NCBI GenBank assembly: GCA_039587395.1
Contig: JBDHIQ010000002.1
Span: forward strand, 1,171-65,170
Origin: Gemmatimonadota bacterium
GTDB lineage: Bacteria > Gemmatimonadota > Gemmatimonadetes > Palauibacterales > Palauibacteraceae
Length of the DNA: 64,000 nucleotides
Reading direction: 5' to 3'
In this document: piece by piece, positions 17,260-59,549 of the stretch
How the letters are laid out: every line of letters begins with the position of its first letter
Position numbering within the stretch: the first letter of the stretch is position 1
Translations under genes and position numbers: made by a program
The notes under the pieces: model-generated
Seen by the model: only the letters and a program-made list of their open reading frames with translations
Told to the model about the DNA's origin: nothing
Database searches by the model: none

Positions 17260-17370
17260 CAAGAAATCGCCCCAGGCTGGCCGTGGCGATCATCACACGC
17301 TTACCGCTGCTACCTTCACGGTCCTCACGGGGTTCACGCGCTCCAACCCCACGGGCCTGGGGCGATCACC
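17260..17370 (-). ncRNA. ffs: signal recognition particle RNA (small bacterial 4.5S type)
   Basis: Minus strand reads GAUCGCCCCAGGC...GUGAGGACCGUGAAGGUAGCAGCGGUAAGC...GCCUGGGGCGAUU. The domain IV core (AGGaCCG-GNRA-AGGuAGCAGC) matches the E. coli AGGUCCGGAAGGAAGCAGC motif. The 5' and 3' ends pair for about 12 bp. Lies upstream of dnaX, as in many bacteria. Confidence 0.8.
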
Positions 17371-17400
17371 ATGATAGCCCGCGCGGGCATCCCGGGTCAA
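17371..17400 (-). promoter_or_regulatory. sigma70-type promoter of the SRP RNA gene
   Basis: Minus strand TTGACC (17400-17395), 18 nt spacer, TATCAT (17376-17371), immediately upstream of the paired 5' end of the RNA. Confidence 0.5.
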
Positions 17401-55856: not shown

Positions 55857-56344
55857 CAGGCCAACCCTTCTCTTCGAGCCTGGGCTCGTTCCAGCGCGCG
55901 GGCCACCGCCTCCGCCGGATCATCGAACCGTTCAATTGCGAACTCGGCGGGCAACTCCGCCAGCAGTCCCACCAGCGGCACCCCGAGCTTCATGCAGAAG
56001 GATGCCTCGCTCAGGGTCCCCCAGCTTCCAGCGACGGCGACCACCGCCTCCGATGCTTTCACCACGAGCGCGTTGCGCGCCTCGCCCAGGCCCGTGGGAA
56101 CCGGGATGGAGACGCCCGGCGCCGCTGCGTTGGGATCATCTCCCGGCAGGAGCCCCAGCACCAGTCCTCCCTGTTCGGCGGCGCCTTCGGCCGCCGCCGC
56201 CATCACACCGCCCAGTCCGCCACACACGACCACCGCCTCGGCGCGCGCGATGGCCCGCCCGACCTGCTTCGCCGCGTCGGCGATGGACGCATCTGCATCG
56301 CCGGACCCGATGACGCCTATCCTGTAGGGACGCCGCTCACTCAC
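55856..56344 (-). CDS. TIGR00725-type protein (LOG/DprA-like Rossmann, SLOG superfamily)
   Basis: IGVIGSGD ... VVCGGLGGVMAAAAEGA ... PTGLGEARNALVV pattern of the TIGR00725/LOG-like family. Confidence 0.65.
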   Translation of the reverse strand: MSERRPYRIGVIGSGDADASIADAAKQVGRAIARAEAVVVCGGLGGVMAAAAEGAAEQGGLVLGLLPGDDPNAAAPGVSIPVPTGLGEARNALVVKASEAVVAVAGSWGTLSEASFCMKLGVPLVGLLAELPAEFAIERFDDPAEAVARALERAQARREGLA

Positions 56345-56351
56345 CCTGGTC

Positions 56352-56789
56352 TCACCTGTCTATCAGGATGGTCACCGGTCCGTCGTTCACCAGCTCCACA
56401 TCCATCATCGCGCCGAACTCCCCGGTCTCGACGCGGCCCGGGCCTTCCCGGCACACCTGCACAAACCGTTCGTACAGCGTCACCGCCTTCTCCGGACGCG
56501 CCGCTTCCACGAACGACGGACGCTTCCCGCGGGAGACGTCGCCGTACAGAGTGAACTGCGACACGATCAGTAAGGCCCCACCCACATCGCCGGCTGACAG
56601 GTTCATCTTTCGGTTCTCATCCGGAAACACCCGGAGTCCCCAGACCTTGTCGGCCATCCAGCGGAGCTCCGGCTCCGCGTCCGAGTCCCTGAACGCTACC
56701 AGCAGCACCAGTCCTTTGTCGATGCTTCCGAGCAGCTTCCCGCCAGCGCTCACTCCCGCCTGCGACACTCTCTGGACCACGACACGCAT
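56352..56789 (-). CDS. dtd: D-aminoacyl-tRNA deacylase
   Basis: Start at ATG 56789 (MRVVVQRV...). SQFTLYGD motif, 145 aa. Confidence 0.95.
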   Translation of the reverse strand: MRVVVQRVSQAGVSAGGKLLGSIDKGLVLLVAFRDSDAEPELRWMADKVWGLRVFPDENRKMNLSAGDVGGALLIVSQFTLYGDVSRGKRPSFVEAARPEKAVTLYERFVQVCREGPGRVETGEFGAMMDVELVNDGPVTILIDR

Positions 56790-56916
56790 GAACCGCGACC
56801 TCCGCTCTCTCCAGCGCCTACGTCCCCGCACTCGTTTCTCCCAATCCACAGTCTGGGGAAAACGGGGTTCCCTGTCCATGTCACCGCCTCGATATCCCAG
56901 TTGCGGCATTTTTCCG

Positions 56917-56952
56917 TTTTTCTACATCTTTTCCACATCGCTTTCCACATCG
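56917..56952. repeat. three tandem 12 bp direct repeats (TTTTTCTACATC / TTTTCCACATCG / CTTTCCACATCG)
   Basis: Read directly from the sequence. Each unit contains a DnaA-box-like 9-mer (TTTTCTACA, TTTTCCACA, CTTTCCACA versus TTATCCACA) and a phased T-tract. Confidence 0.85.
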
Positions 56953-56966
56953 TTTTTTTAAAAAAA
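56949..56966. repeat. left copy of flanking direct repeat ATCGTTTTTTTAAAAAAA
   Basis: Matches 57461-57480 (ATCGTTGTTTTTTAAAAAAA). These are the only long pure A/T runs I found in the window. Confidence 0.85.
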
Positions 56967-57413
56967 TGCCCTGTCTACAGCACCTCTCCTGATCCTGAGG
57001 AGCCGAGTGTGAGCAGCTACGGCCCGAGTGTGGCCTGGATTGAGCAGCGCGGCTGCACAGCGTGCGGGAGCCTCTCCTGGCGGGTGGCGCTACGGGAGGG
57101 CGTCGGGGTCCCGACCGACGTGCGGGCGACGAAGGCCTGGTGTATAGATGCGCGCAGCCCCTGTCCACCCGAAGGTGTCAGGGGCTGTACGAGAAGGACT
57201 ATGTTTTCCGGCTGCTCCGGCTTCACCCTGTTCGATTGCGCGGCCTCACAGGGCTCTCCGCGAACCTGGTACCTTGCGCCCGACTCAGCTGTTTGAGTTC
57301 GCTCTTCCTCGGAGCTTGCGCCCCGTCTCCGGCTCCCTCTTGTCGAACGGTTCGTGGTGCCGTTTCCAGCCTCAGCCTTCCGGATCGGCCGGTGCCTCCT
57401 TCCAAGGCACGCC
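56960..57413 (-). ncRNA. candidate structured RNA of unknown family (alternatively a long leader of the dtd operon)
   Basis: No protein-like ORF. Lies downstream of a near-consensus promoter. Minus-strand hairpins: 57155-57187 (9+4 bp, cUUCGg loop), 57359-57370 (GAAA loop), 57310-57325 (6 bp, GCAA loop), 57392-57410 (6 bp, UGGAAGG loop), 57101-57120 (6 bp), 57225-57254 (7 bp), 56986-57002 (5 bp, CAGGAUC loop). Ends at a U7 run (56953-56959). Confidence 0.45.
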
Positions 57414-57416
57414 GGG

Positions 57417-57444
57417 AATATAAAAGAAATCTTTTGCTGGTCAA
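57417..57444 (-). promoter_or_regulatory. near-consensus sigma70-type promoter (TTGACC-16-TATATT)
   Basis: Minus strand TTGACC (57444-57439), 16 nt spacer, TATATT (57422-57417). Same -35 hexamer as the SRP RNA promoter. AT-rich tract upstream. Rare composition for this genome. Confidence 0.55.
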
Positions 57445-57460
57445 CCCCTGAGAGGGCTGA

Positions 57461-57480
57461 ATCGTTGTTTTTTAAAAAAA
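57461..57480. repeat. right copy of flanking direct repeat ATCGTTGTTTTTTAAAAAAA
   Basis: See 56949-56966. Same orientation, 512 bp apart. Confidence 0.85.
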
Positions 57481-57513
57481 CTGATCCATTTGCCACCATA
57501 ACCCGTGACAAAT
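57474..57513 (-). terminator. possible terminator of the helicase gene
   Basis: Minus strand AUUUGUCAC-GGGUUAUG-GUGGCAAAU (9 bp including one G-U; 57513-57488), 7 nt spacer, then U7 (57480-57474), beginning 33 nt after the helicase stop codon (57546-57548). The spacer makes it atypical. Confidence 0.35.
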
Positions 57514-57545
57514 CGGAGCCAAAAGTCGTGAGAATCGGATGAGAA

Positions 57546-59549
57546 TCAGAACAGCCCCCGCGCATCCCTGCCGATGTTCTCGGCCGGGAGCACGGTTCCC
57601 CCTTCACGAACCCTGTCTACCACGCGGTTGAGGAGGGAATCCGGCGGCAGTGTCTGGCGGAGGCCCTCGCTCGTGCCGACAAGTACCAGCATGTCGCGAG
57701 TCCGAGACAACGCCACGTTGAGCAGTCTGGGGAAGTCCAGGTTGCGGCCCTCGTGCAAAAACCAGCTGCGGCCCGGCGGGGCATCGACCGTGTCGAACAC
57801 GACCACTGACTTCTCTCTCCCCTGGTATCGGTGGATGGTGCTGATCTCGAGGTTTCGCGGCGCTGCCTGTCCGAGCCGCCCGCGCGCCAGGCGCCACAAC
57901 CTCCGTGACTGGAGCCGGTATGGCACCACCACGGCAACGTCGTCTACACCGGCGGAAGCGGCTGCCTCCAGGAACCCGATGATGGCTTCCGCGTGCGCGG
58001 CGTTCGCTCGCGAGCCCTCGGCTCGCTCGACCGCGGGGCCCAGGCCCTCCGTCTCGATCAGGACCAGGGGCGATCGCGGCGCGGGGCGATCGAGTACGGA
58101 CGGCGTGTCCGTCAGGCGGCCGTCGTAGAAGATCTCGCTCACTATGGAGCGGATGGGTGGAGCCATTCGGTATTGCTCCGTGAGCATGGCACACAGCCTG
58201 TCCTGGGCCGAGGGGATGGCCAGCTCACCCGGCGGGGCGTCCGCCACCACCCCGGCCTCCCGGAACACGTCCCGGCTCAGCCAGCGAGCCGCCGCCTCGC
58301 CGCGCGATACCACGACCGGAGGCAGCTGCTGAAAATCTCCGATTGCCACGGCACGGCGTGCGGTCAGGGCGGCGGCCAGGGCTACATACGGCAGGGGAGC
58401 CGTGCTGGCCTCGTCGAGCACCAGCGAGTCGAACCGCAGCGCCATCAGTTCGTCGCGCACGGCCAGGCGCGCCAGCGTGGTCAGCACGACGTCAGCTTCC
58501 CGCAACGCGAGGATGGACTGTTTCTGAAGCTCTCCAGAGAGCCGGCCGAGCTGGCCGAGCGCCTGGTCATCGTCGGCGGCCCTGGCGGCGGCCAGCAGAC
58601 GGGCGTGCCTCGCTCGGATGTCCCGCTGCGCCGGGCCGGAGCCGGCCGGGCGACGCTTTCCGTTCTGGCCATCTCGGCCTGCAGGCGCGCGGCGGCCATG
58701 CAACAGCTCCGCCTCGAGCGTCTCGATCGCCGTCGTGACTCCACCGGCTCCACCACTGATTCTCCGTTCGAGCGCCGCGCCCAGGGACAACGCATCGTCG
58801 CCCGTGGCCGCAAACTCCGCACCGACCCGTACGACCCGGTTGGCACGCACGGCTTCCGGCCCCAGCGCCTGGACGACCCGGCTTGCCGCTTCGTCGACGG
58901 CCGTGTTGGTGGTCGCCACCACCAGGACCTTGCCGGTCTCGGCCAGCTCCGCCACAGCATGGCCCACCAGAAGGGTCTTCCCGGTCCCGGGCGGCCCCCA
59001 CACGAAGTGCACGTCGCTACCCAGGATTCGTTCCAGCGCCTGGCGCTGCGTGGAGTTCAGCTCGGAAGAGGCAAGCCTGCGAAGCGGCTCCGTGTCGAGA
59101 TCAGGATAGCTGCGCCCGAACAGCGCCAGCATGGTGGCCGGGTGGTATCGCTCCGGAGACTCGGCCACGGCAGCAAGCCGCTGTGCCAGCGTCGTGAGCA
59201 GCCACGTGGGGTCGAACTCCAGTTCGGCAGGATCCGCATGCCGGCCCAGCCACTCGGGTACAACGACCAGGAGCACCGAGCTGGCTCTCTTGAAGGAAGC
59301 CACGAAGCCGAGCGCCTCAACGCCGCCAATCCGCACGTACACGCCGTCGTCGGGTCGGATGTCGAGCGGGTCATCCGGCAACTTGAACTCATAGCGAAAC
59401 CCGGGGCCGCTCGATCGGACCAGCCGCCCACCCGTGGCCTGGATGGGCCGCTCCAGTCCCCGGCGGGCCAGCTCCACCCTGACGGCGTCAATCTCTTCAT
59501 CGAGCGCCTCCAGAGACGCGTCGATGATGGACTGGAGGTCTTCGGCCAC
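57546..59549 (-). CDS. Upf1-like superfamily 1B helicase (AAA_11/AAA_12 type) with uncharacterised ~170 aa N-terminal domain
   Basis: Motif I GPPGTGKT, Ia VVATTNTAVDEA, II LVLDEAS, III IGDFQQLPPV, IV EQYRM, V IHRYQGREKSVVVFD, VI LNVALSRTRDMLVLVG. No nuclease motif seen. Confidence 0.85.
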   Translation of the reverse strand: MAEDLQSIIDASLEALDEEIDAVRVELARRGLERPIQATGGRLVRSSGPGFRYEFKLPDDPLDIRPDDGVYVRIGGVEALGFVASFKRASSVLLVVVPEWLGRHADPAELEFDPTWLLTTLAQRLAAVAESPERYHPATMLALFGRSYPDLDTEPLRRLASSELNSTQRQALERILGSDVHFVWGPPGTGKTLLVGHAVAELAETGKVLVVATTNTAVDEAASRVVQALGPEAVRANRVVRVGAEFAATGDDALSLGAALERRISGGAGGVTTAIETLEAELLHGRRAPAGRDGQNGKRRPAGSGPAQRDIRARHARLLAAARAADDDQALGQLGRLSGELQKQSILALREADVVLTTLARLAVRDELMALRFDSLVLDEASTAPLPYVALAAALTARRAVAIGDFQQLPPVVVSRGEAAARWLSRDVFREAGVVADAPPGELAIPSAQDRLCAMLTEQYRMAPPIRSIVSEIFYDGRLTDTPSVLDRPAPRSPLVLIETEGLGPAVERAEGSRANAAHAEAIIGFLEAAASAGVDDVAVVVPYRLQSRRLWRLARGRLGQAAPRNLEISTIHRYQGREKSVVVFDTVDAPPGRSWFLHEGRNLDFPRLLNVALSRTRDMLVLVGTSEGLRQTLPPDSLLNRVVDRVREGGTVLPAENIGRDARGLF

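Follow-up and report, generated by a model that had tools for sequence, protein, structure and literature searches.

What occupies an intergenic gap of 756 nt that annotation leaves empty is the question raised by a 64,000-nt stretch of DNA from a Gemmatimonadota bacterium (contig JBDHIQ010000002.1; the whole stretch is called the window in what follows), in which positions 56790-57545 separate a helicase gene from dtd. The original prediction for this locus, made from the letters of the window, had placed in the gap an independently promoted, hairpin-dense RNA of ~450 nt, read from the minus strand and belonging to no known family. The extent of the gap was borne out, and its open reading frames (ORFs), which had been judged not to be protein-like, have no Pfam match. 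The gap, of which a conserved counterpart of 0.75 kb appears "empty" in annotated Gemmatimonadota genomes, is explained by two modules, a compact structured RNA with its own promoter and an array of DnaA-box-like sites that follows it, and these are inherited, lost and duplicated together. The reading that accounts best for them, and which we consider rather probable, is a gene cassette composed of a trans-acting, self-assembling stable RNA and a coupled DnaA-box module, and not a leader of dtd.

The RNA was followed through its homologues. Species-representative genomes were scanned for the helicase, which gave 35 Gemmatimonadota loci, and nhmmer aligns the gap itself in 24 of these genomes, while a DNA-pattern scan of metagenomes gave 50 loci, of which 15 were true additions and ~30 were discarded as chance matches, having neither an alignment nor a match to the covariance model. 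This model (R1) was built from the RNAalifold structure on a MAFFT alignment of 22 species, and the final alignment holds 40 sequences. In one search it returned 44 full-length matches of 159-249 bits, the RNA of the window scoring 166.9 bits (E 1e-45), and three more loci were added in later searches, at 156.5 bits (L140), 164.6 bits (L143) and 137 bits (L144). Over 680 kb the model finds nothing beyond the RNA loci save antisense echoes of the terminal hairpin, and nothing in unrelated loci. A cassette is also found in CP070670.1, at ~0.62 Mb.

The claim that the RNA belongs to no known family withstood the comparison with Rfam 15, in which the gap has no match, whether at the gathering threshold or at E<=10, nor do 34 related or candidate loci. 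RNase P, tmRNA, 6S, the signal recognition particle (SRP) RNA, the riboswitches, OLE/ROOL/GOLLD/raiA/HEARO and CsrB/Rsm are all among the Rfam 15 families without a match at the locus, and ARAGORN reports no tmRNA there. The RNA is a new family, so far found only in Gemmatimonadota, and with it a little-studied phylum gains a structured RNA that is well supported.

Covariation provides the evidence for its structure. On the plain MAFFT alignment of the 22 species RNAalifold gives 52 pairs, with compensatory changes in 24, and in the final alignment of 40 sequences, fitted to the covariance model, 97.3% of cells pair and both sides have changed in 30 of the 52 pairs. Its covariation score of 0.378 compares with 0.219 in shuffles, none of 500 of which reach the observed value, and the score falls to 0.03-0.10 when the partners are slid by 1-3 columns. 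Protein coding was considered as well and rejected, given that there is no Pfam match, no conserved ORF and no 3-periodicity in the core, where variability over the codon positions is 0.249/0.258/0.248; the coding signature in homologous loci that would have spoken against an RNA is thus absent. One copy (L025:4995-5274) is without the 3' half of P7, and may be degenerate or an assembly error.

The same comparisons redraw the limits of the RNA. Both conservation and structure end near 57141, ~10 nt past the UUCG hairpin, which leaves ~265 nt in place of the ~450 nt first proposed. The 471 nt originally considered have a minimum free energy (MFE) no better than that of shuffles (z +0.32; other strand, z +0.57), and because this is so, in DNA of 65% G+C, hairpin density in itself carries no signal; the 261-nt core folds better than its shuffles (MFE z -2.07). 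Seven hairpins had been listed, four of which are covarying helices of the core, namely those at 57392-57410 (P1), 57310-57325 (the GNRA/UUCG hairpin at the apex of the long arm), 57225-57254 (P6) and 57155-57187 (P7). The other three did not survive, as those at 57101-57120 and 56986-57002 fall in a non-conserved spacer and the GAAA hairpin at 57359-57370 is lineage-specific. Within the core (Table 1), the pseudoknot helix covaries, for example as GGAGAA:UUCUCU in L144, the stem of P2 covaries with 20 G-C vs 18 A-U at one pair, and 15 of the 19 pairs in the helices of the long arm P3-P4-P5 have a compensatory change, the tip of this arm being variable and capped by GNRA or UUCG.

The second support of an independently transcribed RNA is its promoter. 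The near-consensus site predicted on the minus strand at 57444-57417 is the sole promoter-like site on both strands of 56300-58000, where 0.3 would be expected by chance, and it is kept in 36 of 37 aligned homologous loci, the 37th (L101) having a run of N at this place. In the homologues it takes the form GGGGTTGAC-N17-TRTAnnT, the latter element being T(G)TATAAT-like and often an extended -10 (TGTATAAT). With its upstream A/T tract, TTGACC, A/T-rich spacer, TATATT and GC-rich discriminator, it resembles the promoters of stable-RNA genes, and the position of the -10 element would make the first base of P1, near 57410, the start of the RNA. Strong covariation and a conserved promoter together uphold the notion of an independently promoted structured RNA.

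Two T/A palindromes, which the original prediction had missed along with the box array, flank the RNA gene. The sequence TTTTTNAAAAA occurs at just two places in the 64-kb window, both in the gap, with 0 expected by chance. In the alignment, the upstream palindrome (T6-7/A6), a short GC hairpin and the promoter form one module (module A), and this palindrome is kept in most homologous loci. The downstream one contains the U7 tract that had been taken for the end of the RNA; the coordinates given for that tract, 56953-56959, are those of the A7 half, the U7 on the minus strand being 56960-56966, and it has no consistent preceding hairpin, being one half of the conserved T7A7 palindrome which heads the DnaA-box array. 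Its T-run was also tried as an intrinsic terminator and rejected, as the preceding hairpins vary in position and strength.

Three conserved unpaired segments of the RNA, the P2 loop and the J5/4 and J4/3 bulges, are palindromes. The P2 loop mostly holds CCGG (UCCGGA in the window), and other sequences have CUCGAG, ACCGGU or GCGC. At J5/4 there is CAGCUG in 11 sequences, including the window, CCGCGG in 14 and CCUAGG in 4, with AGCU alone left in 10, and these variants differ through symmetric double substitutions. At J4/3, (U)GGUACC(A) is present in 39 of the 40 sequences and GGUGCC in one, which still pairs with itself via G-U. In the cryo-EM structures of the OLE and GOLLD RNAs this pattern, there a loop switching among GGCC, GAUC and AGCU, marks symmetric kissing loops between chains (PMC12286853). 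Given that a hexamer cannot pair with itself in one chain, that no second site complementary to J5/4 exists within the same RNA, and that the pattern is that of OLE and GOLLD, homo-oligomerisation is proposed, and the RNA probably pairs with copies of itself. Two of the features that mark homo-oligomeric ornate RNAs, a complex covarying fold and unpaired motifs which stay self-complementary via symmetric double substitutions, are found here.

Beyond the RNA lies the second module, the array of DnaA-box-like sites. Boxes 1-3 are direct TGTGGA(W)A(R) repeats with an 11-12 nt phase and, in the alignment of loci, GTTATCCACG faces GTGTGGATT ~55 nt beyond these repeats. The sites TGTGGATAA and GTTATCCACG are common in the arrays of relatives and match the DnaA-box consensus TTATCCACA. 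Matches to a box in at least 8 of 9 bases number 75 in the 13.6 kb after the RNAs vs 10 in the other 326 kb of these loci. Box density is 5.5 per kb over the 400 nt that follow an RNA vs 0.03 per kb elsewhere, a 180-fold enrichment, and DnaA would be expected to bind the array. Boxes 4 and 5 were also considered as an RNA hairpin, which was rejected by eye, as box 5 drifts (TGGGGAAT, TTTCGATT) and box 4 has no compensating changes; because the changes do not compensate each other, these boxes are taken as DNA-level sites.

No complete locus has the RNA without the box array after it, and in more than 40 loci the modules are never apart. Insertions occur upstream of the RNA promoter (L043, L036) and none lies between the RNA and the boxes. 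The element is absent from the helicase-dtd site in eight relatives (L010, L011, L013, L016, L018, L020, L023 and L039), in seven of which the two genes are 11-53 nt apart, the distance in L020 being 366 nt, likewise without the RNA. Given that each of the three groups by depth of helicase similarity (50-66% identity) includes loci with the element and that the empty sites are all in one of them, presence of the cassette looks ancestral and its absence secondary, and the helicase gene abutting dtd in the relatives without a cassette suggests an ancestral or restored helicase-dtd operon.

A second genomic context (type 2) was found in L096, L108 and L125, where promoter, RNA, spacer, palindrome and boxes come after an M1 peptidase gene and both the helicase gene and dtd are absent, the genes on the other side being unrelated ones of unknown function, including a JAMM-like gene. 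Following the M1 peptidase to find more of these cassettes led to CAZEBA010000024.1 (L140:12211-12500), JAPULH010000216.1 (L144:6745-7034) and L143, a contig of the sample series of the window itself. Both types are held by the same assemblies in two cases, CAZEBA01 (L041, type 1, and L140, type 2) and JAPULH01 (L028 and L144). An optional extra hairpin, placed after P6 and before the 3' strand of the pseudoknot, with forms such as GAUCUGUC-UGAA-GGCGGGUC and UUACUC-GCAA-GGGUAA, occurs among type-1 RNAs only in L024-L029, L041 and L042, and the same hairpin is found in the type-2 RNAs of L096, L125, L140, L143 and L144. Because this hairpin is common to both, the comparison suggests that the type-2 cassette derives from a duplicated group-B type-1 cassette.

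Table 1. Features of the helicase-dtd interval in the window, listed in the direction of transcription of the RNA
Feature	Position	Strand	Remarks
SF1B helicase gene, 667 aa	57546-59549	minus	AAA_11/AAA_12 domains
Upstream T7A6 palindrome	57468-57480	minus	~58-70 nt before the predicted start site; T6-7/A6 across loci
Sigma-70-type promoter, TTGACC-16-TATATT	57444-57417	minus	A/T-rich 16-nt spacer, GC-rich discriminator; 10/12 matches in scan
Structured RNA core, ~265 nt	57141-57410	minus	R1 166.9 bits; covariation
P1 hairpin, GUGCC/GGCAC	57392-57410	minus	Fully paired in 39/39 distinct sequences; 5 stem-sequence combinations
Pseudoknot, P1 loop GAAGGA with UCCUUC	57397-57402 : 57193-57198	minus	98.8% of cells pair; 2 compensatory pairs
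P2 loop with self-complementary UCCGGA	57378-57387	minus	Always palindromic
Long arm P3-P4-P5	57258-57357	minus	Apical GCAA hairpin, two large one-sided bulges
J5/4 bulge, ACAGCUGAG	57284-57292	minus	
J4/3 bulge, GCAAGGUACCA	57267-57277	minus	
P6 hairpin, conserved AAGG...GCGCAA...CGA	57225-57254	minus	5/8 pairs with compensatory change
P7 terminal hairpin, 13-15 bp, UUCG loop	57153-57192	minus	97.5% of cells pair; 5 compensatory pairs
Short conserved tail after P7	57141-57152	minus	
Non-conserved C-rich spacer	56967-57140	minus	No sequence conservation
Second palindrome, T7A7	56953-56966	minus	Heads the box array in nearly all loci
DnaA-box-like array, five sites	56842-56949	minus	
Box 1, TGTGGAAAG	56949-56941	minus	
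Box 2, TGTGGAAAA	56937-56929	minus	
Box 3, TGTAGAAAA	56926-56918	minus	
Box 4, TTTTCCCCA	56862-56854		Faces box 5
Box 5, TGTGGATTG	56850-56842		Faces box 4
dtd	56352-56789	minus	

Two observations concern the surroundings of these cassettes. A gene of 377 aa, sulfotransferase-like by eye (RSGTT motif), lies between the helicase gene and the cassette at L043:6007-7140 (also in L036), the cassette staying with dtd. After the type-2 cassettes, ~60-80 nt past the last box and before the next gene, there is a promoter-like TTGAC(G/T)-N17-TACC(N)T, at ~12780-12812 in L140, at ~7345-7378 in L144 and downstream of box 5 in L125.

With regard to the 3' end of the RNA, it is most likely at or after the P7 hairpin, which would be a 3'-end or stabiliser hairpin. 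The spacer that separates it from the second palindrome has a mean length of 151 nt, mostly 125-175 nt, and its composition is C 0.36 vs G 0.30, with C exceeding G in 31 of 37 spacers and the opposite, G over C, in the core. In this the spacer would resemble a rut (Rho utilisation) site, as used in Rho-dependent termination. Since the spacer is C-rich and constrained in length, we favour termination of the Rho type and subsequent trimming of the RNA as far as P7. A T-run comes after P7 in L015 and L022 only.

Taken together, the mechanism that we propose for the cassette would begin with the conserved promoter, which would drive a compact RNA of ~265 nt starting at its 5' hairpin. The pseudoknot (GGAGGA:UCCUCC) closes the fold and stacks on the very stable terminal hairpin, at or after which the 3' end would be made, following Rho-type termination in the C-rich spacer. 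The RNA may then act in trans, assembling into homo-dimers or larger homo-oligomers through up to three symmetric kissing contacts, at the P2 loop (CCGG), at J5/4 (CAGCUG/CCGCGG/CCUAGG) and at J4/3 (GGUACC). DnaA bound ~150 nt downstream could tie the locus to the status of the initiator, the array being, for the strong promoter, a roadblock or an insulator, or else a DnaA-titrating site that would be cleared by read-through transcription. A bolder version of this proposal, in which a small RNA assembles into an RNA-only dimer or higher complex through the three kissing contacts and its assembly or transcription helps to sense or control the initiator, is a good deal more speculative, and we regard it as unlikely.

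Several points weigh against the cassette as we interpret it. The start, the end and the abundance of the RNA are all values that we infer; a scan of 56300-58000 for terminators found no intrinsic one, and with a T-run after P7 in just two of ~40 homologues, read-through into dtd is possible. The pair counts come from alignments fitted to the covariance model, and as GGUACC and CCGG hardly vary, true covariation is confined to J5/4 and a small number of P2-loop variants. The boxes of the window itself are degenerate, only one of them matching at 8 of 9 bases, and the presence of both cassettes in each of two independent metagenome-assembled genomes (MAGs) hinges on the bins being pure. Finally, what the box module represents could be a DnaA-regulated region of the ordinary kind, upstream of the next gene and adjoining the RNA by chance or owing to the short distance.

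This last point leads to the alternative that holds up best, which is itself unlikely but has to be taken seriously, namely that the RNA gene and the DnaA boxes are independent neighbours and that the boxes serve the next gene, be it dtd or a TonB_C/JAMM-like gene. DnaA is a common transcription factor, box 5 is just 19-55 nt before the start codon of dtd in some loci, and the promoter-like site after the array (TTGAC-N17-TACCNT) is conserved in type-2 loci, all of which would fit such a role. On the other hand, the modules are never apart in more than 40 loci, even though insertions upstream of the promoter do occur, they have been copied jointly to a site where the downstream genes are unrelated and have been lost jointly, and the length of the spacer between them is constrained to mostly 125-175 nt.

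It is improbable, in turn, that the T/A tract and the boxes are the chromosomal oriC, with an origin-proximal RNA gene transcribed toward the unwinding element. In the oriC of E. coli, the R1 box stands beside the DUE, or DNA-unwinding element, with a box in the R4 orientation facing it, and the layout here is comparable, in that a cluster of five boxes lies beside an A/T-rich T7A7 tract, three boxes are oriented as R1 beside the DUE and a box in the R4 orientation faces them. Furthermore, the only pure A/T 12-14-mers in the 64 kb adjoin the three boxes, whose phase is 11 nt, housekeeping genes that share one orientation form a 48-kb run with the array at its head, and the cumulative GC skew has its minimum near 59 kb. 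An origin should occur once per chromosome, however, and two paralogous cassettes are present in the same assemblies (CAZEBA01 and JAPULH01, as far as the MAG bins go), while the cassette is missing at the site in eight related genomes. The GC skew of the window tracks gene strand; a skew step is seen at type-1 loci only, with none at the type-2 loci L096 and L125, and there is no switch of strand bias at the type-2 loci L140 and L143. Given the two copies, the loss in eight relatives, the skew that follows strand and the lack of a type-2 skew step, a unique oriC is unlikely; in addition, annotation of ~58 kb, which covers the window and its upstream flank except for ~9 kb at the far end, shows neither dnaA nor dnaN, and the array has five boxes only and no DnaA-trio-like element.

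A cis-acting leader or riboswitch of the dtd-SLOG-ltaE operon, with the UUCG hairpin as its terminator, had been the main alternative of the original prediction (there as dtd-TIGR00725-ltaE), and is now very improbable. The RNA is upstream of dtd on the same strand and no separate dtd promoter was found, the 3' strand of the pseudoknot abuts the hairpin, and the T-run after this hairpin in L015 and L022 would suit a terminator. Nevertheless, the same RNA and box module stand before unrelated genes, after the M1 peptidase gene, which makes two downstream contexts, and dtd is close to the helicase gene, or abuts it, in the eight relatives without the RNA. Between the hairpin and dtd there are ~350 nt, including a predicted protein-binding array, the hairpin sequence is almost constant, unlike that of an expression platform, and no riboswitch family of Rfam 15 matches.

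Still less credible is a primer of the ColE1 RNA II type, which would form an R-loop at the A/T tract, with box-bound DnaA loading the helicase. The comparison is with the layout of the ColE1/pBR322 origin, with which the locus shares a promoter placed ~0.5 kb (~450-500 nt) before an A/T tract, DnaA boxes beyond this tract, a structured 5' domain and an interval free of protein genes. It differs from ColE1/pMB1 RNA II in that the locus is chromosomal, that the RNA of the spacer is rich in C and poor in G, which speaks for Rho and against a stable RNA-DNA hybrid, that no promoter of an antisense RNA I was found in the scan of 56300-58000, and that the compact pseudoknotted fold and strong terminal hairpin suggest a released product. 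A plasmid origin was rejected separately, as blastn found no match in 72,556 plasmids, and this lack of plasmid similarity also speaks against the primer. As for a CsrB/RsmZ-type sponge that would sequester CsrA via many GGA motifs, the original suggestion drew on a count of many GGA triplets, and many homologues have CCGGAA or CCGGAU in the P2 loop of what is, as in CsrB/RsmZ, a GGA-rich, independently transcribed non-coding RNA, but we give it next to no credence, given that there is no Rfam match to CsrB/Rsm and no array of repeated GGA-loop hairpins in this one compact pseudoknotted fold, that the GGA triplets described as exposed in loops are not conserved loop motifs, the conserved GGAGGA being paired in the pseudoknot and other GGA lineage-specific, and that the GGA of the P2 loop is lost in a whole subgroup (CCGGUA). 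The ~58 kb of annotated DNA, from the window and the upstream flank, includes no csrA.

The cassette reading, to which we return, may also be placed beside known systems. OLE, ROOL and GOLLD are ornate bacterial RNAs that form RNA-only homo-oligomers (PMC12286853), and like them the new RNA is an orphan, highly conserved, with multiple helices and a pseudoknot; the switching in L9.3 of OLE from one palindrome to another (GGCC/GAUC/AGCU), and to nothing else, has its counterpart in CAGCUG/CCGCGG/CCUAGG. It differs in having ~265-290 nt vs 580-800 nt, in an oligomer which is predicted from sequence, in the lack of any sequence or structure match to their Rfam families, in its phylum, and in a context that has neither an Oap protein gene nor a prophage or tRNA neighbourhood. 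The RNA is akin in kind to the orphan ornate RNAs and a member of none of their families, which raises the question of whether RNA-only quaternary assemblies also exist among RNAs of fewer than 300 nt, in another phylum.

The 6S-1/6S-2 pair and the Y RNAs offer another comparison, as they share a strong promoter with a GC-rich discriminator, ends buried in helices and two diverged paralogues per genome with the new RNA, which, however, has no 6S-like rod with a central bubble and no Rfam match to 6S, tmRNA, RNase P or Y RNA. The array, in turn, recalls the E. coli sites datA, DARS1 and DARS2, which are DnaA-box clusters outside the origin that titrate or recycle DnaA, datA adjoining a stable-RNA (tRNA-Gly) operon. 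Gene-free intergenic clusters of few boxes in mixed orientation, more than one copy per chromosome and A/T-rich sequence of the protein-bending type alongside are common to both. The array differs in its strict coupling to one structured-RNA gene that is transcribed toward it, in showing no evidence of IHF or Fis sites, and in being known as a sequence only.

In the full text of the literature we found no description of a Gemmatimonadota RNA motif, of a Gemmatimonadota oriC or of DnaA boxes tied to an RNA gene. We could find no described precedent for such strict coupling, and know of no link between a structured RNA and DnaA. If functional, this coupling could expose a new layer of control of the replication initiator, or a role of DnaA as a transcription insulator.

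Other features of the locus were observed alongside these. A 9-bp hairpin, AUUUGUCAC...GUGGCAAAU, is located at 57487-57513 on the minus strand, 7 nt before the first T/A palindrome, and recurs at this position in relatives, there 12-16 nt before the palindrome; Rfam reports it as "mir-8338", a chance match, and it could be the terminator of the helicase gene or a part of the cassette. The SRP RNA, correctly placed elsewhere in the window by the original prediction, is matched by Rfam 15 at 17267-17362, and a tRNA-Gln was also found. The SRP RNA promoter (17362-17400, minus strand) is TTGACC-N17-TATCAT with a GC-rich spacer, and in contrast to the promoter of the new RNA it lacks both the A/T-rich spacer and the upstream T/A palindrome.

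Finally, the superfamily 1B (SF1B) helicase encoded beside the cassette has Upf1, DNA2, IGHMBP2 and Sen1 as its nearest solved relatives, and is an SF1B protein like these, of a class of 5'-3' RNA/DNA helicases. A minus-strand run of genes of ~48 kb (10992-59549) begins at the cassette and includes recA, recX, alaS, cca, rarA, hflX, pdxJ, prs, rplY, pth and the gene of an H+-PPase, as well as rpsF, rpsR, rplI, rsfS, smc, the SRP RNA, dnaX, ybaB, recR, grpE and dnaJ, the strand of the genes switching at ~59.6 kb and again at ~10 kb.

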